64,000 nt of DNA from an uncultured Bacteroidales bacterium (GCA_963753055.1 CAVWAP010000002.1:39902-103901), one strand, 5' to 3'. Shown: positions 16,269 through 38,739, counted from the stretch's first letter. A program made the numbers and translations. The notes: generated from the letters alone by a model not told the origin.

Positions 16269-16269
16269 T

Positions 16270-16341
16270 CAGTGAACACTGATCAGTGAACACTGAACAG
16301 AAATCTCAATACTCAATACTCAATACTTAATACTCAATACT
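16270..16341. repeat. Intergenic word repeats (CAGTGAACA words, then five copies of the 8-mer CTCAATAC/TCAATACT)
   Basis: The sequence is cagtgaacactgatcagtgaacactgaacagaaatctcaatactcaatactcaatacttaatactcaatactt. It lies between convergent genes. Confidence 0.9.
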
Positions 16342-16347
16342 TAACTA

Positions 16348-16923
16348 CTATTTCTCTACTACTGGCTGAACAGGGTACTGAGCCATGATCTGTGCTACAG
16401 CCTTGGGAATATTTTTTTCTCTTTTTTGTGGGTTGTCATTAACCGTTCCCTTACCAACACCCTCCCAGACCAATTTTTGGGCCTGTGTATCATACACGTC
16501 ACAAATGAGCGTACCTACGGTATAATCATAGGTGTTGTAGGTGGTGGTTGCCATACCTCCGCCCCATCCCCATCCGGGGCCATAACCGTAGCGGCCGCCA
16601 TAGCCAGCTCCCATGCCTGTGGTCGTTGCTGTCACCTGCTGTTCTTGTTGAGTATGAATAAAGAGCGCAACGGTAAGGTCGCCGCCATCTTTTACAAAAG
16701 TGAGCCCCCTCTTGTCAAACTCATCGGCAAAAGACTTTTCCAGCCTTTCCTTGTCAAAGCCGGTAAGCAACTGATCACTATTATCGGCCCAGCCATAATA
16801 GGAATATGTTTTGTATTGTGTGAAGTCAATGGTTTTATCATAGTCTGCAGTAACAGAAATGCTTGAGCATCCCACAATCACTGCGAGTGCCAGGACGAAT
16901 AATGCTAAGGTGTATTTTTTCAT
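16348..16923 (-). CDS. DUF4136-like lipoprotein
   Basis: 191 aa with a lipobox (LAVIVGC). The pattern ADYDK..DF..YKTY....... and a glycine-rich insert match my memory of DUF4136 lipoproteins. Confidence 0.7.
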   Translation of the reverse strand: MKKYTLALFVLALAVIVGCSSISVTADYDKTIDFTQYKTYSYYGWADNSDQLLTGFDKERLEKSFADEFDKRGLTFVKDGGDLTVALFIHTQQEQQVTATTTGMGAGYGGRYGYGPGWGWGGGMATTTYNTYDYTVGTLICDVYDTQAQKLVWEGVGKGTVNDNPQKREKNIPKAVAQIMAQYPVQPVVEK

Positions 16924-16990: not shown

Positions 16991-17063
16991 ATATGGCGCT
17001 ATGTCTCTATGATACTAGATGCTGGATGCCGGATACCAGATACTGGATGCCGGATACTGGATT
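16991..17063. repeat. W-family word repeat, copy 1 (ATATGGCGCTATGT..CTCTATGATAC.AGATGC.GGATGCC.GATACCAGA..)
   Basis: Related to the copies at 19941-19992 and 21507-21548. It sits immediately downstream of the stop codon of a T9SS cargo gene. Confidence 0.85.
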
Positions 17064-17073
17064 GGTTGTTATA

Positions 17074-19792: not shown

Positions 19793-19828
19793 TTGAATTG
19801 GAGTTAATATGTAAGCGCAGGGGCATAT

Positions 19829-19836
19829 CAAATATA
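19829..19836 (-). promoter_or_regulatory. Candidate Bacteroidota -7 box (TATATTTG = TAnnTTTG) for the T9SS cargo gene
   Basis: The reverse complement of caaatata lies 37-44 nt upstream of ATG 19792. It is preceded by ATTCACTAT, which also occurs in the leaders at 29474-29549 and 31404-31479. Confidence 0.3.
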
Positions 19837-19950
19837 GTGAATAAAACGATGTGTTGTTGATTTATATCTGTGTTTACAATTTACAATATTTGATGTGGTA
19901 TCCGATCCTTCGGCTCCGCTCAGGGATGACAAAATTTGGAATATGGCGCT

Positions 19951-19992
19951 ATGTGCCTCTATGATACCAGATGCCGGATGCCAGATACCAGA
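19951..19992. repeat. W-family repeat, copy 2; exact 42-bp direct repeat with 21507-21548
   Basis: The sequence atgtgcctctatgataccagatgccggatgccagataccaga is identical at both positions (hand-checked). Confidence 0.95.
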
Positions 19993-20021
19993 CACCAGAT
20001 GATTTCTGTCAATATTGATGA

Positions 20022-20103
20022 TTTGCCTTGACATTTTTGTGTTTTATGCCGATATTTGCCTTGATAATTTGAAATTATCTGGCATTGTTTGCCCTGATAT
20101 TTT
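20022..20103 (+). promoter_or_regulatory. Three 16-nt direct repeats (TTTGCCYTGAYAWTTT) at exact 33-bp spacing upstream of the ATPase gene
   Basis: The copies are 20022-20037 tttgccttgacatttt, 20055-20070 tttgccttgataattt and 20088-20103 tttgccctgatatttt. The last ends 22 nt before ATG 20126, just before the aggaggtggg purine-rich tract. Confidence 0.6.
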
Positions 20104-20125
20104 GCAGAAAGGAGGTGGGATATTT

Positions 20126-21433
20126 ATGAAAAGAAGCATTGATCAGGAATTTAGGTGGTGGAAAACAGATCCTAACAGGAAAACATTATTGGTAAGGGGG
20201 GCCAGGCAGGTTGGAAAAACCTATTCTGTCCGGGAGCTTGCAAAAGGATTTGATCATTTCCTGGAGGTTAACTTTGAATCTGACCAGGAGGTTCACCATA
20301 TTTTTGATAAGGAAATGGATCCCGATGTTTTATGCAGGAACCTGTCGGCTTATTATAATGTTCCTGTAATTGACGGTAAAACACTTGTGTTCTTTGATGA
20401 AATACAGTCTTGCCCTCCGGCAATCTCTTCGTTGAGATTCTTTCATGAAAAGAAAAAAAACCTGCATATAATAGCGGCAGGGTCTTTACTTGAATTTGCT
20501 CTGGAAAAACTTCCCTCATTCGGTGTCGGGAGATTTGAGAATCTTTTCATGTACCCTTTTTCTTTTGATGAGTTCCTGTTAGCGCTGGGGGAAGAAAATC
20601 TCTATGATATCAAACATAAAAGCAGTTATAGTAAAATCCTAAACAATGCACTGCATGTAAAGCTGATTAATTATTTAAAACAGTTTTTACTGATAGGGGG
20701 CATGCCCGAGGTTGTTAAAACGTTTATTAGGACCAACGATTACTATCAGCCACAAACTGTTCTTGATCAGTTAATTACAGGCCTCCAGGACGATTTTATT
20801 AAATACAGGAAAAGGGTGCCGCAAAGCCGTATCAGAGAGGTATTTAATTCAATCGTTTATCAATCAGGGGGCAAATTCAATTATTCAAAAGCATCTGATT
20901 CTTCAAATCATTCTCAGACAAAAGAGGCACTTGACCTGCTTGAAATGGCCGGACTGGCTTATAAGGTTAAGCATACAGCTGCCAATGGAATCCCGCTGGG
21001 GGCTGAGGTAAACCCTAAAAAATTCAAGGTGATTTTATTTGATCATGGTATATTTCAGCGGATTCTTGGTCTTGACTTATCAAGATACCTGGTATCAGAT
21101 GATCTTAGTGTTATTAACAAAGGGAATCTGGCTGAGCAATTTGTTGCCATGGAGCTAATTAAGAATCAGCTACCCACCATAAAACCACAACTATATTATT
21201 GGCATCGTGAAAAGAGAGGAAGTTCTGCTGAAGTTGATTATATCATACAAAAGGACAAGGACCTGGTACCTCTGGAGGTTAAGTCCGGAACCCAGGGAAA
21301 GATGCAAAGCCTCCGGTTATTCCTGCGGGAAAAGAAAATTAACTACGGCATCCGGATTTCCATGGAGAACTTTGATCGATACCAAAATATAAAGGTGTTT
21401 CCTCTTTATGCAGTACAGAATATTCTTGACTGA
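20126..21433 (+). CDS. AAA+ ATPase, AAA_14 + DUF4143 architecture (COG1373-like)
   Basis: Start at ATG 20126 (MKRSIDQEF..). Walker A is GARQVGKT and Walker B is LVFFDEIQ. The C-terminal DUF4143-like region ends in AEVDYII....LVPLEVKSG, which looks like a PD-(D/E)xK-type motif. Confidence 0.8.
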   Translation: MKRSIDQEFRWWKTDPNRKTLLVRGARQVGKTYSVRELAKGFDHFLEVNFESDQEVHHIFDKEMDPDVLCRNLSAYYNVPVIDGKTLVFFDEIQSCPPAISSLRFFHEKKKNLHIIAAGSLLEFALEKLPSFGVGRFENLFMYPFSFDEFLLALGEENLYDIKHKSSYSKILNNALHVKLINYLKQFLLIGGMPEVVKTFIRTNDYYQPQTVLDQLITGLQDDFIKYRKRVPQSRIREVFNSIVYQSGGKFNYSKASDSSNHSQTKEALDLLEMAGLAYKVKHTAANGIPLGAEVNPKKFKVILFDHGIFQRILGLDLSRYLVSDDLSVINKGNLAEQFVAMELIKNQLPTIKPQLYYWHREKRGSSAEVDYIIQKDKDLVPLEVKSGTQGKMQSLRLFLREKKINYGIRISMENFDRYQNIKVFPLYAVQNILD

Positions 21434-21506
21434 CAGGGCTAAGGGCAAAGGGCGAAGAGCTAAGGGTGAAGAAACGCTTAGCGCTCTGCTCTTAGCTCTT
21501 TGCCAA

Positions 21507-21548
21507 ATGTGCCTCTATGATACCAGATGCCGGATGCCAGATACCAGA
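21507..21548. repeat. W-family repeat, copy 3; exact 42-bp direct repeat with 19951-19992
   Basis: See the 19951 entry. It is preceded (21437-21505) by an imperfect hairpin of GCTAAGGG/GAAGAGC words. Confidence 0.95.
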
Positions 21549-21689
21549 TTCATTAGGGAAAGTACCGATAACATCCATGATTTTTAAAATATGCGTACCC
21601 ATTGACTTTAGGTGTGTATTTCTGTAAATTTGGGTATCTCCAACTATTGTTACAGATCATGTTATTTTATAAACCCAAAACAAATAATT

Positions 21690-23198
21690 ATGAAAAAAAA
21701 TATTTTCTCAAATCATTTTACTGTTATCGTAATAATTATAATTCTGCAGATTATTTCGGGTTGCCAAAAAACAGATAATGATAACGATAATGTTATTGAT
21801 CCCCCAGAAATCGAGGGTTCCGAAAACCTTGGATCTGGTTATGATGTATTCGACAATTACGCCGAAGTATCACGTGTAAAGGCTGCCATTCTGGATGTAG
21901 ATAAGTTGAATAAAAATGGACTCATTGAAAAGAAAACAGTGGAAAACAGCATCTTTACTACCTCAAGCGGAGAAAGTATATCTGAATACAGCAACTCTCT
22001 TAAGGTATCAGCAAGCCTGGAAGGGAATTACATGTTTTTCAGCGGTGCTGTGGAAACAAATTTTCATGAAGACCGGTATCTTTATGAGTCCTATTCATTT
22101 GCTACGGTAAAAAGCAATATCCATAAAACCCAGCTTCGCCTGCCGATCGATATGTCGGCAGATGAACTGAAACCCTATCTTACTGAGACAGCCAAAAATA
22201 AGCTTAACGATCCTGCGGTGTCACCAGAGTATATTTTCGATATTTATGGCACGCACTGCCTGACCGGGGTAATGCTTGGGGGGCGGCTTGATTACAGTGT
22301 TTCTGCAAGAACCAGCGACCTGACCGTAGGGAAGAGTATCGAGGTATATGCAGAGGCCAGCTTTTCAAGTGGAGGTGTTTCTGTTACCGGCAGTAGTGGA
22401 ACAGTGACCAGCGAGGAATACTCCAAATACCTGAATAGCCAGAAAAAGATCGTGAAAACCTATGGTGGACAGAGTGAGTTTGGACAGGACATAATTAATG
22501 AGGATGATTATGACGCATGGATAAATAGCATTGATGAAAATACGGTATTTTGTGACTATACACAGCACGGTCTTGTCCCTGTATGGGAGTTTGTTGATGA
22601 ACAGTCACGTATAAATGAGCTGATAGCAGCTTTCGATGTATGGGCCAGCGATAATGAAATTACTACAAATCCAGCGCCTCAATTATGTATTCTTGATGTA
22701 AAGGTGTTTTTTGGTAACCCGGCTGATCCATTGTTAATTGACGACAGGGAATATCATCGTTTGAATGCTGACCTGAATGCCTCGGTTGGTGGATCGTTTA
22801 TATGGATTTATTATTTATTGGGGTATACTAACGATGAAACCTTTACACCTATAGCTGAAATATGCACCATAGATGCATCAGACGGGGAGTCTTTGAACAA
22901 TCTTCCTGGTGAAGGCTGGGTGCAGTTGCCGGAAGACCTTAATAAAGGCGCTGGAGGTGATTTAATTTACATCGCCTACCGGAGATCTGCAGGTCCTTCT
23001 GATGATTTGCTTACCGGGCTGCGGGTTGAGCATTCAGCCAAAGCAGATAACTATTATTCGAATTATACCGATGGAACAAATCACTGGTATGCCGTCATGC
23101 AAGGTTATAACGGTATATACAAACAAGACCTGAATGAAGGTTCGGGAGGATGGTTTATCTTCTTATATTATACGAACGATGAACTGATTGTTGAATAA
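21690..23198 (+). CDS. MACPF-domain lipoprotein with C-terminal threefold beta-prism (MABP-like) domain
   Basis: Start at ATG 21690 with a lipobox (LQIISGC). The MACPF signature Y-G-T-H-C-x6-G-G (IYGTHCLTGVMLGGRL) is at nt 22245-22283. The C-terminal ~170 aa hold three repeats of the form DLN..(A/V/S)GG..I(W/Y/F)(I/L)(Y/A)Y. Confidence 0.75.
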   Translation: MKKNIFSNHFTVIVIIIILQIISGCQKTDNDNDNVIDPPEIEGSENLGSGYDVFDNYAEVSRVKAAILDVDKLNKNGLIEKKTVENSIFTTSSGESISEYSNSLKVSASLEGNYMFFSGAVETNFHEDRYLYESYSFATVKSNIHKTQLRLPIDMSADELKPYLTETAKNKLNDPAVSPEYIFDIYGTHCLTGVMLGGRLDYSVSARTSDLTVGKSIEVYAEASFSSGGVSVTGSSGTVTSEEYSKYLNSQKKIVKTYGGQSEFGQDIINEDDYDAWINSIDENTVFCDYTQHGLVPVWEFVDEQSRINELIAAFDVWASDNEITTNPAPQLCILDVKVFFGNPADPLLIDDREYHRLNADLNASVGGSFIWIYYLLGYTNDETFTPIAEICTIDASDGESLNNLPGEGWVQLPEDLNKGAGGDLIYIAYRRSAGPSDDLLTGLRVEHSAKADNYYSNYTDGTNHWYAVMQGYNGIYKQDLNEGSGGWFIFLYYTNDELIVE

Positions 23199-23350
23199 AA
23201 ACCTTTGTTTCACATATCATATTGTGCCGGGATTATCAACATCAGGTCCCTGTTGGACCAGCCATGCACAGATCGCACCAGCAAGGTATCGTATACCAGA
23301 TATCGAATATCAGATCAAATATTGTAAATTGTAAACACAGAATTGTAAAT

Positions 23351-23383
23351 AAAAAAAGCCCAAGCATCGCTTGAGCTTTTTTT
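23351..23383. terminator. Bidirectional rho-independent terminator; the displaced original terminator of tRNA-Phe
   Basis: The structure is A7 - gcccaagc atc gcttgagc - T7, an 8-bp stem with one mismatch. Read on the minus strand it directly follows the 16-bp copy of the tRNA-Phe 3' end at 23381-23396. Confidence 0.7.
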
Positions 23384-23396
23384 GTGGTACCAGCTG
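23381..23396. repeat. attL-type direct repeat (TTTGTGGTACCAGCTG), a copy of the tRNA-Phe 3' end
   Basis: Exact 16-nt match to 33644-33659. The reverse complement CAGCTGGTACCA+CAAA equals tRNA positions 62-73 plus 4 nt. Confidence 0.9.
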
Positions 23397-23609
23397 TACC
23401 TCAACTAAACAAATCTCACCTAATTCCTGTTGTTAAGTATCATTAGAAAAAACACCTTAAACACTACGTTATTAAAGACATTACAGGTAACGTACATTAA
23501 TTTAGAAAAAGAGTAAATTAGGTTTAGTAAGGAAGAATAGTCCCCTTTACCGTCCCCCTTGGGTGCTTTTTGTCGTATATTTGTATATACAATCAACACC
23601 CCCATAACA

Positions 23610-24941
23610 ATGGCAACAATAAAGTTTGTTCTTAAAGAGCCCAACAGTGACAAAGAATCTCTTATCTATGCCCTTGTCCGCTTCGATAACAACAGGATTA
23701 AGTATTCAATTGGTCACTCCATCCATCCAAACTACTGGGATAAGGAAAACCAGGAGGCAATTACAAGGAGCTCACATGAGCAACTCATTAGGATGAGGCT
23801 TAAACTTTCAAATCCCACCAAAGAAACCAACAAGACTATTAATGTGCAGGTAGGTAGATACCGGGAGACTGTCACCAGGATATTTGACTCATTCACAATT
23901 CAAAGGGTTGAGCCTACTACCGAGGCAGTTCGTGAAGGGTTGGATATAGAATTTAAGAAACTCCCAAAGGCCAAAAGGGTAACCCTAAACGATTATATTG
24001 ATCAATTTATCGAAGACATTGAATCCGGGAACAGGCTCACCGAGAAAGGCGAAAAATACAAACACAGTTCAGTTAAGAACTACTATCAACTCAAGACCCA
24101 GTTAGGACTATTCCAAAAGGAGAAACACCGTGTGTTAGACTTTAAGGATGTCACAACAGACCTTTACGATGATCTACTCAAGTTCTTCAGGGAAAAGGAT
24201 TACTCTACCAACTCCATTGGCAGAGTGATCAAAACCCTTAAGGCTGTTATGAATGCATCCTACGAGGGGGGATTTCACAGCAACAACCAATATCAGCTAA
24301 AGAAATTCAAGGCAATTACTGAGAAGATCAAACCTATTTACCTCAGCCTGGAAGAGTTAGAGTGCATATATAACCTTGATCTTTCCGACAGCCCTGAACT
24401 TGCAACTGCAAGGGATATATTTCTTGTCGGTTGTTTTACTGCTTTAAGGTATTCGGATTACAGCCGAATTAAACCCCAACATATTCAAACAACACCCTCT
24501 GGTACAAAGGTGATCCGCATCATCACAAAAAAGACCGGAGAAGAGGTCATCATTCCCATGTGGCACTGGATCCTTGAGGAGCTGATAGACAAATACCCAG
24601 ATGGATTACCAAAGAGCTATGAGCAGAAGATCAACAAGAGGGTCAAAGACATTGGAGAAGAGGCAAAGATCAATGAACCCGTTAACAAGGTGGTGTATAA
24701 ACAAGGCACTAAATACGAAGTAACAACTCCTAAGCATAAACTAATAATGACTCATACCGCCAGAAGGTCGGGAGCCACCAACATGTATAAAGAGGGCATC
24801 CCAACAGTGGACATTATGAAGATCACCGGGCATAGCCTGGAGAGTAATTTCTTTAAATACATTCAGCTAACCAAGGAAGAGACAGCTGAAAGAATTACCC
24901 GGGATTACAAAATCAATAAACCACTCCAATTAGCGAAATAA
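23610..24941 (+). CDS. Tyrosine-type site-specific integrase (Bacteroidota phage-integrase family)
   Basis: Start at ATG 23610 (MATIKFVLKEP). It has an N-terminal Arm-DNA-binding-like and SAM-like domain. The catalytic residues read as ..TALRYSD.. (R), HTARRSGAT (H-x-x-R) and GHS...FFKYI (H..Y). Confidence 0.9.
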   Translation: MATIKFVLKEPNSDKESLIYALVRFDNNRIKYSIGHSIHPNYWDKENQEAITRSSHEQLIRMRLKLSNPTKETNKTINVQVGRYRETVTRIFDSFTIQRVEPTTEAVREGLDIEFKKLPKAKRVTLNDYIDQFIEDIESGNRLTEKGEKYKHSSVKNYYQLKTQLGLFQKEKHRVLDFKDVTTDLYDDLLKFFREKDYSTNSIGRVIKTLKAVMNASYEGGFHSNNQYQLKKFKAITEKIKPIYLSLEELECIYNLDLSDSPELATARDIFLVGCFTALRYSDYSRIKPQHIQTTPSGTKVIRIITKKTGEEVIIPMWHWILEELIDKYPDGLPKSYEQKINKRVKDIGEEAKINEPVNKVVYKQGTKYEVTTPKHKLIMTHTARRSGATNMYKEGIPTVDIMKITGHSLESNFFKYIQLTKEETAERITRDYKINKPLQLAK

Positions 24942-25026
24942 ATAAAATCTTGTTGTTATAGTCATTGTTTTATTTTCATTAAAGCCCTAATTTCATATTT
25001 TTATTTTCATCCAACTCGATAGGGAA

Positions 25027-25767
25027 ATGAATATTGGCAAGAAAAAGAGACTCTTCTTTTTAAAGTTGAGAGAAATTGAAGACGATTTAAGTAATTGTAA
25101 GTTGCACAATGAGAAGGATATATTAAATAAGATACGAGCGGCCCATGAATTTACGTATTTATTGTTTGAGGAACTTGAAAAACCCATTATGGCAGGGGAA
25201 AAAGGGATACTGTTAGTAAAAAAACATTATAATGAAGTTGCCAAAATCCTCAAACACAAAATTGAAATATTTGAATTAAACGTTAAAGAGATATATCAAA
25301 ATGTTGAACAGCATCCTTTAGATGATGAAATCTACAAAGAGTTTAATCTGAATAAGGAATACATGGAAATGTTAGGAAGCCTCAAGTTCAATTGTAATAA
25401 ATTTATCTTAGACATATTTCCGGAAACACAAAAAACGAAATCCCAAGACATAAGTCTTGACAAGATGTTTAGTGACGAAACAAAACTATCCGAGATTATT
25501 AATAAATTAAAAGAAAGAAATTATATCAGGGTGAATGACGCAGGAAATTATATATGGCATGGTAATCCCATTAATCAAAAAGGAAAGAAATTACAATTGG
25601 TTGCCCTTTCACTTGAACTTGATAAATACCTTAATAGTGAATACTCTGATAGAGAAATCCACAAAGCGTATATTAAGTATTTTAATTGCAAAATTTCGGA
25701 TACAATGTTTAAGGATTCCCAATCCGGTCTTGCTGAAAAATACCGATCTTATTTCAACTTCATTTAG
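25027..25767 (+). CDS. Hypothetical protein (246 aa, AT-rich, no recognised domain)
   Basis: A long ORF in the same orientation as int and xis-like genes. It is helical and K/E-rich. Calling it coding rests only on ORF length and position. Confidence 0.5.
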   Translation: MNIGKKKRLFFLKLREIEDDLSNCKLHNEKDILNKIRAAHEFTYLLFEELEKPIMAGEKGILLVKKHYNEVAKILKHKIEIFELNVKEIYQNVEQHPLDDEIYKEFNLNKEYMEMLGSLKFNCNKFILDIFPETQKTKSQDISLDKMFSDETKLSEIINKLKERNYIRVNDAGNYIWHGNPINQKGKKLQLVALSLELDKYLNSEYSDREIHKAYIKYFNCKISDTMFKDSQSGLAEKYRSYFNFI

Positions 25768-25857
25768 TCTATTGTTACCAAACTTACCAATGTTATTCTG
25801 GTAATTTAATCAGGCAATTTGCGATGTATTTTGCGGTCAAATAAAAATTATTTGACT

Positions 25858-26151
25858 ATGCAGACACTACAAATTCAAAACCTCTCCGTTGATGAGCTAA
25901 AAGTGATTATTGAAGACACCATCGAGAATAAGGTGTCAAGCCTCATCCCCAAACCTCAGCCCCAAGTAAAGTACCTAACCCGTCAGGAAACAGCGGATCA
26001 CCTCCGTATTTCCCTGGTTACCCTCCATGATTGGACAAAGAAAGGAATCATCAAGGCCTACCGCATCAATTCCAGGGTAAGGTTCAAGAGTGATGAGGTA
26101 GAGAATGCCGTCAAGGAAATTCATTCCCTGAAATATCGGAGGGATAAATAA
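25858..26151 (+). CDS. Excisionase-like helix-turn-helix DNA-binding protein (HTH_17/MerR-superfamily type)
   Basis: Start at ATG 25858. The motif YLTRQETADHLRISLVTLHDWTKKGIIKAYRINSRVRFKSDEV is typical of Bacteroidota Xis/AlpA-like HTH proteins. Confidence 0.75.
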   Translation: MQTLQIQNLSVDELKVIIEDTIENKVSSLIPKPQPQVKYLTRQETADHLRISLVTLHDWTKKGIIKAYRINSRVRFKSDEVENAVKEIHSLKYRRDK

Positions 26152-26474
26152 TGGAAAACATTCAAACCCTTCCCGGTATTATACACAAAAACGGTTTTAG
26201 GTATACTCAGATATGGCGTGGTAAGACTTCGTGCATTTACGAGCAAATGGTTTGGGAACCAGATACAATTTACTATGAGGTGTTCTTAATCAAAGTCAAA
26301 CCCGCTCAAACCTTATTTGGTAGAGAAATCCCCCCAAGGGAAAGATTCCCCCATAATGAAGCCTTTGGCTACTGGGCATGGACGTACCACAACCTCCGGG
26401 ATGCTAAGAGAAAATTCAATGAACTTGAAAAATCAATGACTTATGAGAACAAGATTTATTCCAGAGAATCTTAA
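26151..26474 (+). CDS. Hypothetical protein (107 aa)
   Basis: Its start codon overlaps the upstream stop codon (TAATG at 26149-26153) and its 3' end overlaps the next ORF by 32 nt, so it appears translationally coupled within the operon. Confidence 0.5.
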   Translation: MENIQTLPGIIHKNGFRYTQIWRGKTSCIYEQMVWEPDTIYYEVFLIKVKPAQTLFGREIPPRERFPHNEAFGYWAWTYHNLRDAKRKFNELEKSMTYENKIYSRES

Positions 26475-27813
26475 TGTAGAACAGCTAACGGTTGACCATC
26501 CCACTGACAACATCAAGTGGTTTAAAAAGTCAAAACTCATTCATATCATCAGTCTGTTTACCGAAATTCCAGCTCGAAACAAAACAGTTCGCAATAACTT
26601 TCAGAACAATGGATACGTCCCACTAAACTCTGAGAAACTTCGCCAGGACGGCATTCATAATTATAATGAATACCTCAACTATTTGATGGAATGCGGGGTT
26701 ATAGAAACCGATAATCAATTCATAGTTGGTCAGAAATCACGCGGCTATAGATTAACCAAGCTTTATCATACCCCTGTGAAAGAAGCCAAAGAAACAGGGA
26801 TTAAAAGAGTTAATCTGCATCGGTATCTCAGGGAAATCAAGTCCCGCAAAAAATACCACTATCTGAGTAAATATTTCGATGATGGGATGCTCACAATCGA
26901 CTTTGATCAATCAATAGATTTCATAGGTGATAAATTGAAAAAGTCGACTAAAGAGAACATGGCACATAAAATTATGAAACATAACACCGGGTTTTACTGC
27001 ATTTCTATGATACATCATAAGGACTACTTTTTCTTTGCTGACGAAACGGGGCACCGTGTCCACACCAACCTGACAATACTCCCAAAGGAGCTGAGACAGT
27101 TTATTACCTACGATAGCCAGTCTTTATCAGCAGTAGACATCAAAAACTCTCAGCCATATTTTAGCACCATCTTGTTTCAGCCTAAGTTTTATGAAAAATC
27201 GAGCCCGTTTAATATTTATGATATTATCCCTGTCAATTCTCCTTGTAAGAAAGTAAAACCAATAACTCAATCTATCCTGAGACAAGCCACCCCTACCATT
27301 ACTTTGTTAATATCGCTTGGGGCGGCTGAGAAACAGGAGGTTGGGGGGTATGTTTCTACCGTGGCAAATGGACTACTGTATGAACGATACCAGGTGACCT
27401 ATAACGAAAGTTACAATACACAAATTACACGTGAACAGGCGAAGAAAAAACTATTCCTTGTGATTTATTCTGCCGAAGGGTGTTATAGAAAGGAAAAAAA
27501 GGTTTTCAGCAGTCTCTTTCCAACCGTGAGCAAAATATTTTCAATCTTCAAGGAGCGGTATCATGAATGCCTTGCAGTATTGTTGCAACGGATTGAAGCA
27601 TATATTATACTTGACAAGGCCTGCAGAAGTATTTCATCGGAATATCCCCAGATCCCCCTTTTTACAATTCATGACAGTATTGTTACCCTCACCGGTTATG
27701 AGCAAAAGATTAAACCCATAGTAGAAGCAGAATTATTAAAGCATATTGGGATCCAACCCACTATCAATTATGAATATTGGTCAAACTTATCACATAAAAA
27801 CAATGATAAATAA
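26443..27813 (+). CDS. Stand-alone family-A (PolA-type) polymerase-like protein with N-terminal wHTH-like region
   Basis: 456 aa. Pre-motif A reads ETGHRVHTNLTILP (compare TGRLSS.DPNLQNIP). Motif A is SAVD(232)IKNSQPYF, compare DYSQIELR. The O-helix motif B is R330-EQA-K334-KKL-F338-LVI-Y342-S, with the exact R-x3-K-x3-F-x3-Y spacing. Motif C is LFTIH(410)D(411)SIVT. No exonuclease domains are visible. Confidence 0.6.
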   Translation: MRTRFIPENLNVEQLTVDHPTDNIKWFKKSKLIHIISLFTEIPARNKTVRNNFQNNGYVPLNSEKLRQDGIHNYNEYLNYLMECGVIETDNQFIVGQKSRGYRLTKLYHTPVKEAKETGIKRVNLHRYLREIKSRKKYHYLSKYFDDGMLTIDFDQSIDFIGDKLKKSTKENMAHKIMKHNTGFYCISMIHHKDYFFFADETGHRVHTNLTILPKELRQFITYDSQSLSAVDIKNSQPYFSTILFQPKFYEKSSPFNIYDIIPVNSPCKKVKPITQSILRQATPTITLLISLGAAEKQEVGGYVSTVANGLLYERYQVTYNESYNTQITREQAKKKLFLVIYSAEGCYRKEKKVFSSLFPTVSKIFSIFKERYHECLAVLLQRIEAYIILDKACRSISSEYPQIPLFTIHDSIVTLTGYEQKIKPIVEAELLKHIGIQPTINYEYWSNLSHKNNDK

Positions 27814-28180
27814 TAACGGGATACTTTGCATGAATGACAAGAAGGAATTGTTGATTAACTATCACTTGTCCAATGACTTTATTATCGAAAAATTCATTGA
27901 TATGAAAACTCAAATGAAGAATATTACCATTAATGATTTTAATGTTTGGGACATTATCTAAAAGCCCATCAACCATACACCTGATTTTGGCAAAAATGAG
28001 CCCAGTGGTATCTTACATTACCCAGCTTGGGTTCGTGCCTAATTTTCCGAATGGTTCCGCTGAAAATGGAAAATTGATAAGTTGATGTGATTAAGATTGG
28101 GGTACCCCCAGGAAATTCATCCCGAGAGGGGTGCTGGATGGCCGCCACATATTTTTTTGCCCTACTGAAACGTATACACA

Positions 28181-29440
28181 TTACCTCATCTTCACCATCT
28201 TCCCTCCACCAACCTTTCCTCCAGCTTGTATCCTGAAGTAATACATCCCAGCTGGTAGTCCTTCAGCGTTCCATTGAACCTTCTGCTCGCCTTTATCTTG
28301 CTTTTCCTGCATCAGATAAACAATCTGAGATTGTACATTGTAAATTGTAAATTGTACATTCTCTGGTTTGTCAAGGGTGTAGGTGAGGGTTGTTGAATTG
28401 GTGAAGGGGTTGGGGGATATATAACAGTATTCAATTAAATACTGCTCTTCAACAGAAACTCCATTGGCAATACAAGAATCCTGTACTTGTTCAGGGCTGT
28501 TGCAACCAATAGCGTTTTGAGTAATCCTCACATTACCAGAAGGATTATTTAAATAATTACAAATACTTTGAACGTCGCAGGTAGTCAGGGCATCATTTCT
28601 TGAAATCTCAAGGTCACCCCCAATGGAAGTCAAATTCTCCAATCCTGTTAAACTGGTCAGGGCAGAATTTCCTCCATACCAAATCTCCCCAATATTTAAA
28701 CTTCCTCCTAGGGAAGTCAAACCCTCCAGCCCGGTTAAACTGGTTAAGATAGGGTTATGTTCAAAATAGAGCCCTCCTCCGATTGTGGTCACATTCTCCA
28801 GCCCTGTCAGGCTGGCTAAATCATAGTTAGCGACAAGATTGAGCCCTCCTCCGATTGTGGTCACATTCTCCAGCCCTGCCAGGCTGGTAAAGTCATCGGT
28901 GACATCAATCGAAAGGCTTCCCACGATCGTGGTCAAATTCTCCAGGCCCGTCAGATTGGTTAGGCCTCCGCTAAATGAAATGCCAAGACTTTCGCCGATA
29001 TAGGATAAATTCTGTAGCCCTGCCAAACTACTTATGTAACTAATGTCAAGAAGAAGACTTCCACCGATTGTGGTCACATTCTCCAGGCCTGTCAAACTAG
29101 TTAAGGTTTGGTTATTTTCAAAATAGAGGTTTCCCCCGATAGTGGTTACATTCTCCAAGCCCGTGAGGCTGGTCAGGGAAAAGTTCCAATAAATATTAAG
29201 CTCTCCCCCGATAGAGGTTAAAACACTTAATCCATCGAGATTAGTAATATTACTAATCACCCCCACACCTGCTCCAATTCTCACATACCCTTCAATTTCC
29301 GTACAATTCGGATAAATTATCTGAAAACTATCAATCTGAGATTGTGTTTCAAATGTTATCCCTTCAGGTAAACATGGTTGGCATATGGCAATAAGAGGAA
29401 ATATAACGGTTGAAAAAACTGTCAGGGCTATTTTTTTCAT
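28181..29440 (-). CDS. Leucine-rich-repeat (BspA-like) T9SS cargo protein
   Basis: Start at ATG 29440 (MKKIALTVFSTVIFPLIAICQ). It has about ten ~22-aa repeats of the form LTSLTGLENVTTIGG.L....N. The C-terminal CTD is ISPNPFTN...GLPAGMYYFRIQAGGKVGGGKMVKMR. Confidence 0.85.
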   Translation of the reverse strand: MKKIALTVFSTVIFPLIAICQPCLPEGITFETQSQIDSFQIIYPNCTEIEGYVRIGAGVGVISNITNLDGLSVLTSIGGELNIYWNFSLTSLTGLENVTTIGGNLYFENNQTLTSLTGLENVTTIGGSLLLDISYISSLAGLQNLSYIGESLGISFSGGLTNLTGLENLTTIVGSLSIDVTDDFTSLAGLENVTTIGGGLNLVANYDLASLTGLENVTTIGGGLYFEHNPILTSLTGLEGLTSLGGSLNIGEIWYGGNSALTSLTGLENLTSIGGDLEISRNDALTTCDVQSICNYLNNPSGNVRITQNAIGCNSPEQVQDSCIANGVSVEEQYLIEYCYISPNPFTNSTTLTYTLDKPENVQFTIYNVQSQIVYLMQEKQDKGEQKVQWNAEGLPAGMYYFRIQAGGKVGGGKMVKMR

Positions 29441-29473
29441 CACTATGATATTTGGATTAATAAATAGTGGATT

Positions 29474-29549
29474 GAGAATCTGGCAGCATAGATGCTTCAA
29501 TGGTCGGATGGTCCTATAAAGATAGTGAATTGCAGGGGGTTAGTCAAGA
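29474..29549 (-). promoter_or_regulatory. Conserved 76-nt upstream leader/promoter, copy 1 (upstream of LRR gene)
   Basis: About 64 of 76 nt are identical (hand count) to 31404-31479. On the coding strand it contains TTGACTAAC and ATTCACTATCTTTATA, which look like -33 and -7 elements. Confidence 0.6.
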
Positions 29550-29637
29550 AATATCAGTGAACAGTGAACACTAATCACTGAACAGAAAATCATAATTCAT
29601 GAATCGTAAACCGAAATCAAATATCAGATATCACGAA

Positions 29638-29745
29638 TCAGATATCAGATATCTTAATAATCTTCCCCCCACCAATCATCTCCCCAGCCTGTATCCTGAA
29701 ATAGTACACAAATATTGCTGACGACAAACATACTCCAGCAGTACT
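29638..29745 (-). pseudogene. Remnant 3' end of a T9SS C-terminal domain (..AGV..VYYFRIQAGEMIGGGKIIKISDI*)
   Basis: It translates in the same frame, directly after the lipase stop codon. The DNA and peptide closely resemble the tail of the LRR gene (MYYFRIQAGGKVGGGKMVKMR*). There is no start codon and no upstream CTD part. Confidence 0.6.
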
Positions 29746-31368
29746 TTAAAGTAATTTAATTATCTGTATGTTATTCCCAGATACAATCTTTAGAAAATAC
29801 AAGCTTTGGTTATTTGATTTGTTAATTCCTAATGTAGAAACTTTCCAATTGTAGTTATATTGACCCTCTTCTAATATCCCAAGGTCAATCGAGGAGAGTT
29901 TTCTTCCAATTATATCGTAAGCTTCTACTATGGTGGAAGCCTGTTCAATTATTGTAATATCAACTTTAATTGATTCTTTTAAGGGAATTGGATATACATT
30001 AACTGTAAATTTTTCTTTACTGTAATCATCTTCCTCAAGAGGGGAACTTTTCAGGCATGGTCCAAGGTAAGCTCCCTGAGCCAACAAAGCAGGTACTGCA
30101 TTGGGACTTACACAAATGGTAGTGGGATTACTGTTATTCCCAGGTGGTATATGACACACCCAAACCTTATTACCATTATTCCCACATGCTCCCCCACATT
30201 CAACTCTCAAACTATCAAACCAAGTAAGTGCATATGGGTAGGATAGGAGCCAACATGTTTCATGTGTTCCAATTGGGTCTAAATCTATTGCTTGCACATC
30301 AGGGGCTCCAAGAGCAAGCATAGTGTCTTGTGCCATGATTGCATTTTCAGGGAAAGCCATTGAATCCATACCACAATATAACATACGAACTGGTTCCTGT
30401 GGAATCCAATTGTGCAGATCATTTTTCCTAAGATCAACATTTAAAGGATGATTAGGGTTGTTCAGGAAGTTGTTTAGAACGGAATCCTGGATAAAGTCAT
30501 AATAATTGTAAGGAAGTAATGCATCCCATTCACCAGCCCAATGTATACCCGAAGCCCACCAGTCAGGTATTATAGAGTCATAAGGGGGATCATAGATTTC
30601 ATTACAATTTGTATATAAATTTCCATAAACATGCTGGTAGGAATCGACACAATAAGCTATGAGTGATGGTACATAATAGGTTGAATCTCCGTCAAATACT
30701 CCATCTATTTGTACTGTCGACATTGAATAAGGTCCTGACATAGGAGCTGAGGCCACAACGTTAAATTCGCTTTGAAGATTATTGACTTCAATGTATTTGT
30801 GTACAGCCATAGTGGCATGTCCCCCTTCCGAATATCCAGTTAAAAATAACTGATTGTTATCCCAAATCTGAAGTGAACCATTTAAAAATTCTCTTGCCGC
30901 ACGAATTAAATCAATACTTGCCGTTGCTTCCGACTCCCAATGACACCATGGATGAGTACCAGGATTAACTCCCAATCCAAGATAATCTGGCATGGTGGTT
31001 ATATAACCATTTCCAGAAAATAACAAACCATTCCCTATAAGATAACCATTAGAAGGAACCCATATTTTTTCAAATATTGTTCCGTGTTGATAAGATACTA
31101 AAGGTAGAGTATCGCAGTAGTATTGAGGAACAAGCAAGGCACCAGATGCAACGGTTGGGCTCCCGAATACATCGATGGTGTTATAGGTAATTGAATAGAC
31201 TGTAACACCATTAAGGGACATAGAAGTGGTATTCCAACCGTACCAATCTAAAGTAAGCTGAACATCAGTAACATTTCCGCTGGCAATTTCTGTTGCACTA
31301 ATAAGGTGTTGTGCAAATGAAACAGAAGTAATCATTACAATGCTTGCTGTAAACAGTAATTTTCTCAT
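29746..31368 (-). CDS. Secreted alpha/beta-hydrolase (LIP-family lipase-like) with T9SS-type C-terminal domain
   Basis: 540 aa with a signal peptide (ASIVMITSVSFAQ) and the nucleophile elbow GYSEGGH. A Cys-rich KVWVCHIPPGN...ICV linker precedes a divergent CTD (VYPIPLKESIKVDI...LYFLKIVSGNNIQIIKLL). The gene is clearly more AT-rich than the neighbouring LRR gene. Confidence 0.75.
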   Translation of the reverse strand: MRKLLFTASIVMITSVSFAQHLISATEIASGNVTDVQLTLDWYGWNTTSMSLNGVTVYSITYNTIDVFGSPTVASGALLVPQYYCDTLPLVSYQHGTIFEKIWVPSNGYLIGNGLLFSGNGYITTMPDYLGLGVNPGTHPWCHWESEATASIDLIRAAREFLNGSLQIWDNNQLFLTGYSEGGHATMAVHKYIEVNNLQSEFNVVASAPMSGPYSMSTVQIDGVFDGDSTYYVPSLIAYCVDSYQHVYGNLYTNCNEIYDPPYDSIIPDWWASGIHWAGEWDALLPYNYYDFIQDSVLNNFLNNPNHPLNVDLRKNDLHNWIPQEPVRMLYCGMDSMAFPENAIMAQDTMLALGAPDVQAIDLDPIGTHETCWLLSYPYALTWFDSLRVECGGACGNNGNKVWVCHIPPGNNSNPTTICVSPNAVPALLAQGAYLGPCLKSSPLEEDDYSKEKFTVNVYPIPLKESIKVDITIIEQASTIVEAYDIIGRKLSSIDLGILEEGQYNYNWKVSTLGINKSNNQSLYFLKIVSGNNIQIIKLL

Positions 31369-31403
31369 AGCTCTAATATTTAAGATTTATAACAATGTAA
31401 GCT

Positions 31404-31479
31404 GAGTATCTGGCAGAGTAGATATCTCAATGGTCGGATAGACTTATAAAGATAGTGAATTACAGGTGGTTAGTCAAGG
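31404..31479 (-). promoter_or_regulatory. Conserved 76-nt upstream leader/promoter, copy 2 (upstream of lipase gene)
   Basis: See 29474-29549. Confidence 0.6.
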
Positions 31480-31630
31480 AGAGAGGAACTGAGGGGGAGG
31501 CTATAGTGATTCTTGGAGCTATTTAAATTAGTAAGCATGAACCCCACCGCGTTCATTCGCACGCAATCTCTCGCGAGGGGGTATACCTTTAGTCATTACT
31601 TCAATTTGCCAAAAACAAGAAGGGGGTATA

Positions 31631-33478
31631 CTATTTCTTTATTGCCTTTAGTATTCTGTCTTCCTTAATCACTACATCTCGCATTAACAAGTTATATGGT
31701 AGTTTTTTGAGTTTGGATTTTTTAAATCCGTCCAATATCCCCACAAGGGCACTGGCCGATATAAGTGAAAGATTTAGTTCGTATTCCAACTCACATTCAT
31801 TAATAAAATCATCACTAAAATCCGGGGCAACCAACAAAGACTTAATCACCTTAAAGTTGTTTTTCTGAGCCAATTCAAAATAAGATTTGATTTGACGTGA
31901 TACAGAACTAAACTTATTGTACCCACTTTCCTTAATGGTTTTGCATTCAATAATGATCAGTTCCTGGTTCCCAAGGTTAAGAACAATGTCCATCTTGTTC
32001 TTGTTTGTGTTAAGTTGTTTCCTTAATTTTTCATCCACATCAAACCCAAGCTTTGTGAATATGCTCTTAGTAAGAGTTTCAAATTTTGCTCCCAGGTCTG
32101 CCTCTTTAATCCTAATCCCATTTTCTTTTAAGGTGTTTAGATCCCTTAAACCAATATTCTCAAAATTTTCTAAGAAGATATTTTCTGTGTCCTTATATGA
32201 ATCTAAAATGTTTAAAACAATATTCCCCCTTGTCTTAATTGATTTTGCTTCAGAGAATCCCTCAAGCCCCTTGTTTCCGAGAATGTCCAGAATATCGCGA
32301 GGTTTTATGTTGTAATCAATTAAATATTTTCCACTGAGAACATTTTCTTCTTGCAGTTCAAATTCAGTCTTCACAAATTGGTTGAAGTTTCTTACGTTCT
32401 CATTTAGATCGACTAACAACTTTTCGTAACCGTCAATAGAAATTCCAACCTTTTCATCAGTTTCAATGTCCTCAAAGTACATAACGAGATTCTGAATCTT
32501 ATCACTTATGGTTATACCTTTTAGTGGGGGGGAAATTTTAAGCTCCTTTTCAAGTAATGTGTTTAGATAGTTCTTCTTGTCTGTTACCTTGGTGCCCTCT
32601 TTAAACATGTCGTTCTCAAGCATTCCCGAAAAAGAAATGCCCTCGTTAATGATTTCCTTAATTTTTTCTTGGCGAGACATTTTCCAATTGATATTATGTT
32701 TTCTACAAACCAGGTTAAGCGGTGAATCTTTTATATGTTTGAGAACCCTACGAAAGAATTTATCTGCAACCTCCTTGCCCCTTAGTTTTCTTAAAAGACG
32801 AACGATTTCATCAGTAATGAATACGTTGTGATTCTTTTTGGAGTAAAATACCACACCCCGGTTTCTTAAGTCGTTTATTATTTTGTCTATCTCCTGCTTT
32901 TCAATTGGCAAGATGGAATAATTAATAAGCTTGACTTCTTCCTGGGACAAATCTAATTGCTTTGATAAGGCGATCAGGATGGACTGTTCGTCACTCGTTA
33001 TTTTACTATCAAGGTTGCTTTGTAAATCATTGTAATAAGCAGTATGCAAACATTGACTATAGATCTTATAGTCCCTTATTCTCATTTCTCCCCTATTGCC
33101 CTCATCTTGCAAGATCTTTTTGAATTCTTTCAGCTTGGTATTTAGGTGTTTTATCTCCTCTATATAAAGCTTGTCGAACCACTCCCTAGACATTATGCAG
33201 TTACCATCCCGAATAAGTATATCCACCAATATATCAAGCTGGGAAGTGGTTTGGGCAAACTCCTCTTTGATACATTCTGAGAACTCGGTTTCTATTAAAG
33301 AAAAAACCCGCGCGATATTGATGTTGTCAACATTTTTCAGGTCTTTGTCGGTATCGCTTAAGATCTTGTCAATTTCCTTAAAGTTCTTCGGGTTTTCGGC
33401 GATGATATTGTCAACAATTTTAAGAAAAGCATTTTTCTCAAAGGAGTTCAGCTGGTCAAGGACTTTTACAAGTTTCAT
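31631..33478 (-). CDS. Large helical protein with C-terminal PD-(D/E)xK (Mrr-like restriction endonuclease) domain
   Basis: Start at ATG 33478 (MKLVKVLDQL). The C-terminal ~130 aa read FETLTKSIFTKLGF...(K)MDIVLNL..QELIIIECKT.......V.RQIKSY......FKVIKSLLVAPDFSDDF, which fits the Mrr_cat pattern E..D..ExK. The N-terminal ~480 aa are not recognised. The gene is very AT-rich. Confidence 0.6.
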   Translation of the reverse strand: MKLVKVLDQLNSFEKNAFLKIVDNIIAENPKNFKEIDKILSDTDKDLKNVDNINIARVFSLIETEFSECIKEEFAQTTSQLDILVDILIRDGNCIMSREWFDKLYIEEIKHLNTKLKEFKKILQDEGNRGEMRIRDYKIYSQCLHTAYYNDLQSNLDSKITSDEQSILIALSKQLDLSQEEVKLINYSILPIEKQEIDKIINDLRNRGVVFYSKKNHNVFITDEIVRLLRKLRGKEVADKFFRRVLKHIKDSPLNLVCRKHNINWKMSRQEKIKEIINEGISFSGMLENDMFKEGTKVTDKKNYLNTLLEKELKISPPLKGITISDKIQNLVMYFEDIETDEKVGISIDGYEKLLVDLNENVRNFNQFVKTEFELQEENVLSGKYLIDYNIKPRDILDILGNKGLEGFSEAKSIKTRGNIVLNILDSYKDTENIFLENFENIGLRDLNTLKENGIRIKEADLGAKFETLTKSIFTKLGFDVDEKLRKQLNTNKNKMDIVLNLGNQELIIIECKTIKESGYNKFSSVSRQIKSYFELAQKNNFKVIKSLLVAPDFSDDFINECELEYELNLSLISASALVGILDGFKKSKLKKLPYNLLMRDVVIKEDRILKAIKK

Positions 33479-33647
33479 AATCAGGGGTTTTAGGTGACAA
33501 CTACACAAATGTAATAAGAATAAATATGAACCCCAACTATAAAATTGTCTAGGCCGATTTTAGAGCACAACGATCCCCCAAACCGTCCCCCAACAAAAAA
33601 CCCACCACACAACAAATTGTTATATAGCGGGTTAATCTTTCGGTTTG

Positions 33648-33720
<73 letters not shown>

Positions 33721-33802: not shown

Positions 33803-33975
33803 GAATTGACCAATTCACCAATCTGCATCAATTGACCAAATAATTCACAACTTTCAATTGTTCAGATCTCAATTTTCAAAGAGTTGAAAATTTATCATTC
33901 TAACATTGAATTTTGGAGCTTATCTGGTCAATTGGAATGTGGTCAATTGGTCAATTTTCAAGGATTGGTCAATTC
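33803..33975. repeat. ATTGACCAAT-word palindromic repeat, copy A (~173 bp)
   Basis: Collinear with copy B (37423-37581) through gaattgaccaattcaccaatctg.atcaattgaccaaataatt.acaa.tttcaattgttcagat.tcaattttcaaa..gttgaa.atttatcattctaacattga.ttttgga..tta.ctggtcaattgg. Its ends are inverted (gaattgacca / tggtcaattc). It overlaps the last two sense codons and the stop codon of the downstream gene. Confidence 0.9.
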
Positions 33976-37422: not shown

Positions 37423-37581
37423 GAATTGACCAATTCACCAATCTGTATCAATTGACCAAATAATTTACAAATTTCAATTGTTCAGATTTCAATTTTCAAA
37501 CGGTTGAATATTTATCATTCTAACATTGATTTTTGGAATTTACCTGGTCAATTGGTATAATTGATACAGATTGGTCAATTC
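37423..37581. repeat. ATTGACCAAT-word palindromic repeat, copy B (~159 bp)
   Basis: See copy A. Here the two ends pair over gaattgaccaat...aatctgtatcaatt / aattgatacagatt...ggtcaattc. It lies between the stop of gene 37596..38654 and the start of the GT2 operon. Confidence 0.9.
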
Positions 37582-38654: not shown

Positions 38655-38663
38655 TGTTATAAA

Positions 38664-38739
38664 CAGTGATCACTGATCACTGAACACTGAACAGAAAAAC
38701 AGATCACTACTGTTCACTGCTCAGTGTTCAGTGTTCACT
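38664..38739. repeat. Imperfect long hairpin made of CAGTGAWCA words in a divergent promoter region
   Basis: The sequence is cagtgatcactgatcactgaacactgaacag - aaaaacagatcacta - ctgttcactgctcagtgttcagtgttcact. Confidence 0.85.

Follow-up and report, generated by a model that had tools for sequence, protein, structure and literature searches.

The TV-Pols are minimal family A-like polymerases of 400-600 amino acids (aa) that have no nuclease and in some cases carry an extra N-terminal domain; their shared features are thumb helices, an arginine on a beta-hairpin, two palm aspartates and an RxxxK motif in the fingers (Iyer, Abhiman and Aravind 2008, PMC2579912). Their genes occur in Bacteroidetes and other groups, linked to lambda-type integrases, resolvases or D5 helicases, at loci that are integration hotspots rich in restriction-modification genes, and the enzymes were predicted to be the prim-pols of replicative mobile elements (PMC2579912). 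Here we describe an island with a TV-Pol-like gene, orf456, in a stretch of 64,000 nucleotides from an uncultured Bacteroidales bacterium (GCA_963753055.1 CAVWAP010000002.1:39902-103901; the whole stretch is called the window, and positions are counted from its first letter). The best explanation of the region, and one that we consider likely, is that of a genomic island integrated at the 3' end of a tRNA-Phe gene by its own integrase. The island is of a known general kind, and its polymerase fits a family already described, TV-Pol.

There are other close precedents. CcPol of the SCCmec elements acts as a primase once the small OB-fold protein MP has bound it, and its helicase is Cch2; de novo DNA priming by CcPol-MP was shown, and replication of the excised element was proposed (PMC7581432, PMC10061031). 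A survey of CcPol-MP-type primases was confined to Bacillota (PMC10061031). Riemerella anatipestifer has a 10-kb island at tRNA-Arg whose integrase is IntN1-like, and for it both excision to a circle and re-integration were shown (PMC6764341). Pipolins have direct-repeat flanks, usually at tRNA genes, and carry their own DNA polymerase, one or more tyrosine recombinases and exchangeable defence cargo (PMC11551731, PMC7385651).

The original prediction for this DNA, made from the sequence alone, had set the ends of the island at a 16-mer, TTTGTGGTACCAGCTG, said to occur exactly twice. That was borne out over the 64-kb window, where the copies lie at 23381-23396 and 33644-33659; no third copy was found in the window at up to two mismatches (chance expectation 0.04), and a longer probe built from the 3' half of the tRNA matched only the tRNA itself. 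The single tRNA that ARAGORN called in the window is tRNA-Phe(GAA), and on its strand the repeat consists of CAGCTGGTACCA (tRNA positions 62-73, to the discriminator base) plus CAAA. The claim that the second copy comprises the last 12 nt of the tRNA plus 4 nt is therefore correct when counted to the discriminator A73 (33648), while ARAGORN's own call gives 13+3. The cores cover the 3' strands of the T-stem and the acceptor stem, and the interior of the island, 23397-33643, lies between them, for a total of 10.3 kb. The features of the junctions are as follows.

23381..23396, minus strand: distal core copy (attachment, or att, site at the displaced end), an exact repeat of 33644-33659 (16/16)
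33644..33659, minus strand: tRNA-proximal core copy, tRNA positions 62-73 plus 4 nt
33647..33720, minus strand: tRNA-Phe(GAA), the probable integration target, intact by way of the island's core copy (ARAGORN); identical sequence in the related contigs L093-L098
23351..23383, minus strand: ancestral tRNA-Phe terminator, displaced 10.3 kb and outside the island; A-run, 8-bp stem and T-run (terminator scan and fold)
33599..33633, minus strand: island-borne replacement terminator for the reconstituted tRNA-Phe; 16-pair stem and T-run, kept in L093

The window contains 17 dispersed exact repeats of at least 16 nt, so the length of the repeat is by itself unremarkable, and the 16-mer could on that count be a chance repeat, with the 10 kb being native chromosome beside a stray integrase. 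Against this, the other repeats are mostly intergenic word repeats of the host, and TTTGTGGTACCAGCTG alone among the 17 touches a tRNA, overlapping its end.

The terminators carry the argument further. On the tRNA strand, the distal core is followed at once by A7-GCTCAAGC-GAT-GCTTGGGC-T7, a hairpin with a folding energy of -18.4 kcal/mol (z -4.5). The original prediction had taken this good rho-independent terminator to be that of the ancestral tRNA gene, left behind with its 3' end, and both the fold and the homology of the flank, described below, uphold it. The island also brings its own tRNA terminator, a point absent from that prediction: directly after the reconstituted tRNA stands a second hairpin, of -25.2 kcal/mol (z -4.05).

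Relatives were obtained as orthologs of the LPG-synthase gene adjoining the tRNA, fetched with their contigs, and all have tRNA-Phe. The island sequence is absent from six of them (L095, L096, L097, L098, L102 and L103; roughly 74-77% nucleotide identity, none of the same species), of which L097 ends 8 nt past the tRNA and is hence uninformative beyond that point. In the other five, tRNA-Phe is directly followed by its own hairpin terminator, and in L096, L098, L102 and L103 the terminator is in turn followed by a conserved TTTTTT(A)ATTTACA-type block homologous to window 23316-23350. L098 reads AAAAAAAG-hairpin-CTTTTTTTATTTACGATTCTGTATGTACAATTTAGAATG, and the window outside the distal repeat reads AAAAAAAG-hairpin-CTTTTTTTATTTACAATTCTGTGTTTACAATTTACAATATTTG; in L096 a 28-nt match to window 23316-23343, at 96%, lies about 130 nt past the tRNA. 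Because 23316-23350 is homologous to sequence downstream of the tRNA in these relatives, the DNA left of 23381 is the native tRNA-Phe flank, and the TTTTTT(A)ATTTACA-type flank marks the empty site. The comparison with island-free genomes that the original prediction had proposed thus yielded empty sites in L096, L098, L102 and L103, and in L095 a terminator and no island.

The composition of the island points the same way. Its GC content is 0.379, against 0.427 in the rest of the window, and the tetranucleotide distance of all three island segments tried (integrase to polymerase; the two secreted-protein genes; and orf615, called orf625 before its start was set at ATG 33478) exceeds that of every equal-size host window. 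The island is compositionally foreign. That composition, the empty sites of L095, L096, L098, L102 and L103 and the homology of the distal flank refute the chance-repeat account, to which we give almost no credence.

Integration by the tyrosine integrase is well supported, and we picture the event as follows. The island's tyrosine integrase would have inserted it into the 3' end of tRNA-Phe by site-specific recombination, with the crossover inside the 16-bp identity shared by the two cores. The core copy brought by the island would have preserved the tRNA, the island's hairpin would now end the tRNA transcript, and the original tRNA 3' end and its terminator would have been displaced by 10.3 kb. 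Synthetic junctions reconstructed from the cores read ...TTCGATTCCAGCTGGTACCACAAAAAAAGCTCAAGCGATGCTTGGGCTTTTTTTATTTAC for attB (tRNA strand) and ...ATATAGCGGGTTAATCTTTCGGTTTGTGGTACCAGCTGTACCTCAACTAAACAAATCTC for attP (plus strand). The integrase gene and its candidate arm sites lie just inside the ends.

23610..24941, plus strand: tyrosine integrase, 443 aa, Bacteroidota type, with N-terminal arm-binding domain (Pfam)
23539..23558, plus strand: candidate left-arm sites AGTCCCC-N5-ACCGTCCCCC, a bipartite pattern matching 33572-33591, of proposed function
33572..33591, plus strand: candidate right-arm sites GATCCCCC-N2-ACCGTCCCCC, unchanged in L093 while neighbouring bases differ

The predicted integrase gene is complete, and its ATG at 23610 is 213 nt inside the distal repeat (214 in the original prediction). 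Its product has the Pfam domains Arm-DNA-bind_5, Phage_int_SAM_5 and Phage_integrase (the last over 6-171/172), and the catalytic R, HxxR, H and Y can all be read from the sequence. The 10-mer ACCGTCCCCC occurs in the same orientation at 23549-23558, 153 nt inside the left end, and at 33582-33591, 52 nt inside the right end, with each copy preceded at equal spacing by a second xTCCCC unit; CGTCCCCC is restricted to the two arm positions within the 64-kb window. It is a reasonable inference that these candidate arm-type sites would be bound by the N-terminal domain of the integrase.

The age of the insertion can be judged from L093, the closest relative (92% protein identity), in which the right end of the island, replacement terminator and GGGGGACGG motifs included, follows the tRNA. 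The match continues for 946 nt after the tRNA, up to the end of the contig at window 32701, and identity is 91.2% over the island stretch and 91.3% over the adjoining host genes. Since the island end diverges at the level of the host, the island is old and vertically inherited, which settles in favour of age the earlier suggestion that it was either old or derived from a close relative. Entry accordingly falls between two branchings, later than that from the ~76% relatives and earlier than that from L093, and in this lineage the island is at best rarely mobile. Host-type word repeats, also noted before, are confirmed within the island at 29555-29585 and 29616-29653, where one 18-mer is common to host position 12289. 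They are confined to one intergenic region of the island and fit either long residence or capture of the neighbouring cargo genes, for a leucine-rich repeat (LRR) protein and a lipase, from a related genome.

29555..29653, no strand: word repeats of host type with a 7-bp period (CAGTGAA, ATCAGAT), separating the LRR gene from the lipase gene (repeat scan)

An old island might be a fossil: a real insertion that no longer moves, whose integrase and polymerase persist by chance or through co-option by the host. The near-equal divergence from L093 and the heptamer repeats favour such a reading, as do the absence of transfer genes in searches of family libraries and the failure to find variant contigs from the same sample. 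It has to contend with the intactness of all eight open reading frames (ORFs), the retention of the catalytic residues of the integrase, the continuing identity of the two 16-bp cores, the conservation of the candidate arm sites in L093 and a composition that has not been ameliorated. In addition, the L094 and L097 contigs stop exactly at the 3' end of tRNA-Phe, as would be expected of site-polymorphic populations; such breaks are compatible with assembly ambiguity at a polymorphic site and prove nothing. On balance we hold the fossil to be a serious possibility, short of an even chance.

The genes that follow the integrase gene are these.

25027..25767, plus strand: orf246, without match in Pfam, PHROGs, NCBIfam or PADLOC
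25819..26151, plus strand: HTH_17 (excisionase/MerR-type) DNA-binding protein, 110 aa, first gene of an operon of helix-turn-helix (HTH) gene, orf107 and polymerase gene (Pfam HTH_17, E 2.5e-10; TIGR01764 excisionase domain)
26151..26474, plus strand: orf107, overlapping the HTH stop by 1 nt and the polymerase start by 32 nt
26443..27813, plus strand: orf456, compact family A (TV-Pol-like) polymerase, 456 aa (AF2 model, Foldseek, invariant motifs)

The original prediction had named a PolA-like polymerase, and its fold and motifs agree. The AlphaFold model of orf456, built on an alignment of 47 homologs, has a pLDDT of 91.8 and a pTM of 0.89, and every match to it in the Protein Data Bank (PDB) at E<=0.001 by Foldseek is a family A polymerase. 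The apicoplast polymerase, Bst, KlenTaq, Klenow and Pol1 of M. smegmatis match with probability 1.0, and T7 DNA polymerase, Pol theta and mitochondrial RNA polymerase with slightly weaker E-values. Among the viral models of BFVD, compact 400-aa phage proteins annotated 'putative DNA polymerase I' match the whole chain (TM 0.70/0.78, E 2e-23). The catalytic motifs are invariant: D232 of motif A, in VDIKNSQPY; RxxxK of motif B, in R330xxxK334xxxFxxxY; and H410-D411-S of motif C.

Compared by published feature descriptions, orf456 fits the TV-Pol family. The model has thumb-like helices (H154-167/H173-191), the invariant R205 sits on a beta-hairpin (E197-208), and D232 and H410-D411 of the palm and R330xxxK334 of the fingers have their counterparts in TV-Pol. 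No exonuclease fold is present in the 456-aa model, and no nuclease adjoins the polymerase gene in the clustered related loci. The neighbourhood is likewise that of TV-Pol, with an integrase in most informative related loci (counts below) and, in Aestuariibaculum, a D5_N/PriCT_2 protein 1.5 kb downstream. Orf456, too, has an extra N-terminal domain, of ~145 aa, which is modelled as mixed alpha/beta with a winged-helix-like part, whereas that of TV-Pol was predicted to be all-helical (PMC2579912). The nuclease-free mini-polymerase, the additional domain, the linkage to an integrase and the membership in Bacteroidetes are thus common to both; tRNA targeting, the att structure and the coupling to an HTH_17 gene are seen here and not described for TV-Pol in PMC2579912.

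The gene called xis-like in the original prediction does encode an HTH_17/excisionase domain, but the role of a simple excisionase did not hold up, since the gene is coupled to the polymerase gene. In most relatives, HTH_17 genes stand directly upstream of the polymerase gene with a gap of 0-43 nt, and this operonic arrangement leaves 'xis-like' as only one possible role. Orf107 is an extra gene between HTH and polymerase, a difference from the related elements, with no family or PDB match (Pfam, PHROGs, NCBIfam, PADLOC, PDB); that it is a polymerase partner is speculation. It and orf246 were the two ORFs left without assignment before, and in the family libraries they remain so. Orf246 is not conserved in 89 related loci, and its weak I-MsoI-like match (E 9.5e-4 over 45 residues) was judged not meaningful.

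A search for the module elsewhere, proposed with the original prediction, was rewarding: integrase, HTH_17 gene and polymerase recur together beside many Bacteroidota tRNA genes. Close homologs of orf456 number 230, all from Bacteroidota where the organism is named, with 417 relatives in metagenome contigs, including human gut, and 5 in IMG/VR; a profile search with the polymerase family returned 8667 cluster representatives. Among 89 related loci that were fetched, 44 extend 3 kb or more upstream from the polymerase gene and were counted as informative. An integrase that clusters with the island's own occurs in 51 of the 89, and in 35 of the 44. The genes usually run in the order tRNA, integrase gene, small HTH_17 gene, polymerase gene, and HTH_17 accounts for seven of the nine small ORFs immediately upstream of the polymerase. 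In ~30 fetched loci the module has a tRNA gene (Ser, Thr, Asn, Met, Leu, Asp or Arg) at its side or upstream, directly adjoining the integrase gene in most of those in which the latter was detected, and direct repeats of tRNA 3' ends bound islands of 10.7-14.4 kb in L028, L054, L058, L060 and L078. (L060 was considered as a circular contig and dismissed: its repeat is the tRNA-Asn repeat, not a terminal overlap.) Cargo elsewhere in the family includes type I restriction-modification, Dcm methylases, NucS-like nucleases, SIR2 and HipA. The cargo, remarked on before as unusual for so small an element, is not unusual for this family, whose islands of 10-14 kb often carry restriction-modification or defence genes.

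Within this family, a gut sub-lineage (L043, L050, L054-L083) has a 783-aa DEAD-like helicase directly upstream of the polymerase in place of the small HTH_17 gene; its members often lie downstream of tRNA-Met or tRNA-Thr and come partly from human-gut metagenomes. In Aestuariibaculum a D5-type primase-helicase is encoded near the polymerase homolog. Homologs also occur in Bacteroidota megaphages and on one plasmid, of Hymenobacter qilianensis (NZ_CP060788.1, L101; 35 kb), whose type IX secretion system (T9SS)-sorted and SBBP-repeat cargo and resolvase (2824-4398, 12703-16497, 20739-22415) echo the cargo type of the tRNA-Phe island. The idea that the homolog is the replicase of this plasmid was dropped, as the plasmid has an annotated Rep and ParA.

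The Riemerella island resembles the present one in its size of ~10 kb, its Bacteroidota host, its direct repeats of a tRNA 3' end and its lack of transfer genes. In size its ORFs (integrase 1356, hypothetical 744 (AFD55362.1), DNA-binding 288 and hypothetical 1383 bp (AFD55371.1)) are strikingly close to those here, and it differs in its target and layout: tRNA-Arg, a 53-bp repeat and an integrase gene adjoining the tRNA, as against tRNA-Phe, 16 bp and an integrase gene at the displaced end. CcPol-MP resembles the present module in that a truncated family A polymerase, sharing an operon with a small partner, belongs to the core of an integrative element. SCC elements, however, recombine at the rlmH site by large serine recombinases, where the island has a tyrosine integrase and a tRNA target; MP is downstream of CcPol and has an OB fold, whereas orf107 is upstream of the polymerase gene and matchless; and SCCmec has the Cch2 helicase and Bacillota hosts, whereas the Bacteroidales island has no helicase (some relatives have one). 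Pipolins, found mostly in Proteobacteria, Firmicutes and Actinobacteria, have the primer-independent family B polymerase piPolB, and the enzyme here is family A by fold, so that the two are analogous at most, not homologous.

From the family context and from CcPol we infer how the module might work. After excision driven by the integrase, orf456, probably with the HTH_17 and orf107 products, would prime and/or copy the circle, in parallel to CcPol-MP of SCCmec, and transfer from cell to cell would need a helper or transformation, there being no transfer or packaging genes. A bolder version holds that the islands with integrase, HTH_17 and TV-Pol are self-replicating integrative elements, the family A counterpart of pipolins, in which the polymerase, guided by HTH_17 (and orf107 here), recognises an origin on the circle and primes and copies it with no dedicated primase or helicase; at present we would call this rather doubtful. 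If it were true, an enzyme of the orf456 type would be a second route to primer-independent synthesis by a family A polymerase.

Another reading is that the island is a helper-dependent phage satellite or an integrative mobilisable element, which excises, replicates itself and is packaged or conjugated by another element. Its module of integrase, HTH and replication genes with no structural genes resembles the core of such elements, polymerase homologs are found in the 5 IMG/VR contigs and in Bacteroidota megaphages, and the defence cargo of relatives is frequent in satellites. Nevertheless, Pfam, PHROGs and NCBIfam reveal no terminase, capsid-remodelling, relaxase or oriT-type gene, and viral contigs hold only 5 of more than 420 relatives, so that we rate this as somewhat unlikely. 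More broadly, no relaxase, conjugation, oriT-type, terminase, capsid or packaging family is represented among the eight ORFs in these libraries (orf246 and orf107 being matchless), in keeping with the original statement that mobilisation, conjugation and capsid genes are missing.

The PolA-like protein might alternatively be an effector, an immune or toxin-like enzyme that synthesises nucleic acid, in which case the island would be a defence or cargo island moved by its integrase. The wealth of restriction-modification, SIR2, HipA and nuclease genes in related islands could be cited for this, along with the lack of a helicase or primase here and the Rep of the homolog-bearing plasmid. Yet the polymerase gene is part of the conserved core next to the integrase gene, not of the variable cargo; several lineages have helicases linked to it; the one relative put to the test proved to be a primase-polymerase belonging to a replication module (PMC7581432); and PADLOC gives no match. 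An effector role is accordingly improbable in our view.

Several observations weigh against our own account of an integrase-borne island with its polymerase as replicase, and they are gathered here. The integrase gene adjoins the displaced piece of the tRNA, and the core stands in the inverse orientation to this gene, whereas in the fetched relatives in which integrase and tRNA were both detected the integrase gene follows an intact tRNA in the same direction, in all but L090; the integrases here and in relatives are only about 25% identical, which makes a different attP layout plausible, and the placement is atypical nonetheless. The arm-site repeat is borderline: the positions and orientation of the 10-mer were given correctly in the original prediction, but shuffling both arms produces a shared 10-mer in 5.5% of cases. 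Orf456 and its family profile have no sequence match in Pfam, PHROGs, NCBIfam, PADLOC or PDB. The island has no helicase or primase (Pfam, PHROGs, NCBIfam, PADLOC) and no iteron-like origin, a search of its non-coding stretches for iterons or an origin having given nothing convincing. The Rep annotated on the Hymenobacter plasmid means that this homolog lends no support to a replicase role, and a search of 80 related metagenome loci for circular contigs gave none. The host-level divergence from L093 speaks for long residence, and the island's own proteins are on record from the single sample ERR11523668.

As an insertion the island is of a textbook kind, and its value is that of a cleanly delimited case with junctions, empty sites, and displaced and replacement terminators. 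It also represents an abundant and experimentally untouched element family of Bacteroidota. Of the core polymerases only a distant Firmicute cousin, CcPol, has been tested, and it is in this polymerase family, large and biochemically untested, that the significance lies, not in the insertion itself. If it is true that the polymerases prime and replicate excised islands, this would explain the persistence of small islands without transfer genes and the spread of their cargo (often defence), including in gut Bacteroidota, and the known primer-independent enzymes would gain compact family A members that might be of practical use.

The cargo fills the remainder of the island.

28181..29500, minus strand: secreted LRR / receptor-L-domain protein with T9SS C-terminal sorting domain (Pfam Recep_L_domain, LRR_5; Por_Secre_tail E 1.6e-9)
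29746..31368, minus strand: secreted lipase-like protein with weak T9SS tail (Pfam LIP, E 8e-8)
31631..33478, minus strand: orf615, with PD-(D/E)xK-like C-terminal motif (phrog_34709, full length, E 3e-111)

Two T9SS-secreted proteins had been predicted. The LRR gene, which contains 72-nt coding repeats, has a clear tail; the second is indeed lipase-like, but its Por_Secre_tail scores only 17 bits against a cut-off of 27, and at its C-terminus it is similar to the tail of a protein that the host encodes at 40700-40945. An exact 17-mer, TATAAAGATAGTGAATT, stands just upstream of the starts of both genes (29515-29531 and 31445-31461), and on the coding strand it has a -7 box of the Bacteroidota type (TAnnTTT-like), suggesting that the two genes have a promoter in common.

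Orf615 is a solitary, highly conserved and uncharacterised protein of 615 aa with no Pfam domain. It has more than 3000 homologs; the best 120 listed are ~616 aa long and 61-73% identical, and those named among them come from Bacteroidota, Chlorobi, Aminicenantes, Desulfobacterota and Proteobacteria (metagenome-assembled genomes, at least 5 phyla). D497, E511 and K513 (a D..ExK motif) are invariant, and its model (pLDDT 80) has a weak resemblance to Nt.BspD6I, FokI, PspGI and arenavirus endonucleases (E 0.02-0.3). The former label of 'nuclease fusion' is thus plausible but weakly supported, by the motif and these weak fold matches. A homolog in another genome stands alone among host genes, and a scan of viral contigs for orf615 gave no match.

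Beyond the island, the region downstream of tRNA-Phe is a variable hotspot, as the stretch up to the conserved MacB/DUF4136 genes differs in every relative. In the window (17000-23380) it holds T9SS proteins, an AAA_14 ATPase and a MACPF protein; in L095 (8141-12850) and L096 (3493-6080) a guanylate-cyclase/TPR gene, accompanied in L095 by a 632-aa membrane protein; and in L098 (3600-7178) two other T9SS proteins. The 632-aa gene, which adjoins tRNA-Phe in L095, was considered as a relative of orf615 and proved unrelated on comparison. A scan of genome contigs for the MACPF flank found only L005, non-syntenic and without the tRNA, and an exact-protein look-up of the MACPF protein gave no match.

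The intergenic DNA of the host contains widespread short tandem arrays with a 7-bp period (GGGTGAA x11, TGATATC, GATACTG, GATGCCA, AACACTG and AACCACT, for example), at 3953-4030, 11935-11981, 12290-12306, 16268-16349, 17011-17062, 19963-20001, 21435-21549, 23287-23335, 38662-38737, 40855-40893, 41948-41974, 44009-44035 and 51772-51807, and these look genome-wide. An exact 42-bp direct repeat rich in GATGCCA/GATACCA (19951-19992 and 21507-21548) brackets the AAA_14/DUF4143 ATPase gene (20015-21433), possibly a one-gene insertion or duplication. Upstream of tRNA-Phe, a block of ~110 bp of AATTGACC-type word repeats (33803-33910) has a duplicate at 37423-37530, upstream of the GT2 gene, and compared with L098 (7176-10890) the GT2-PMT-LPG operon is inverted relative to the tRNA, apparently at these AATTGACC-type repeats.

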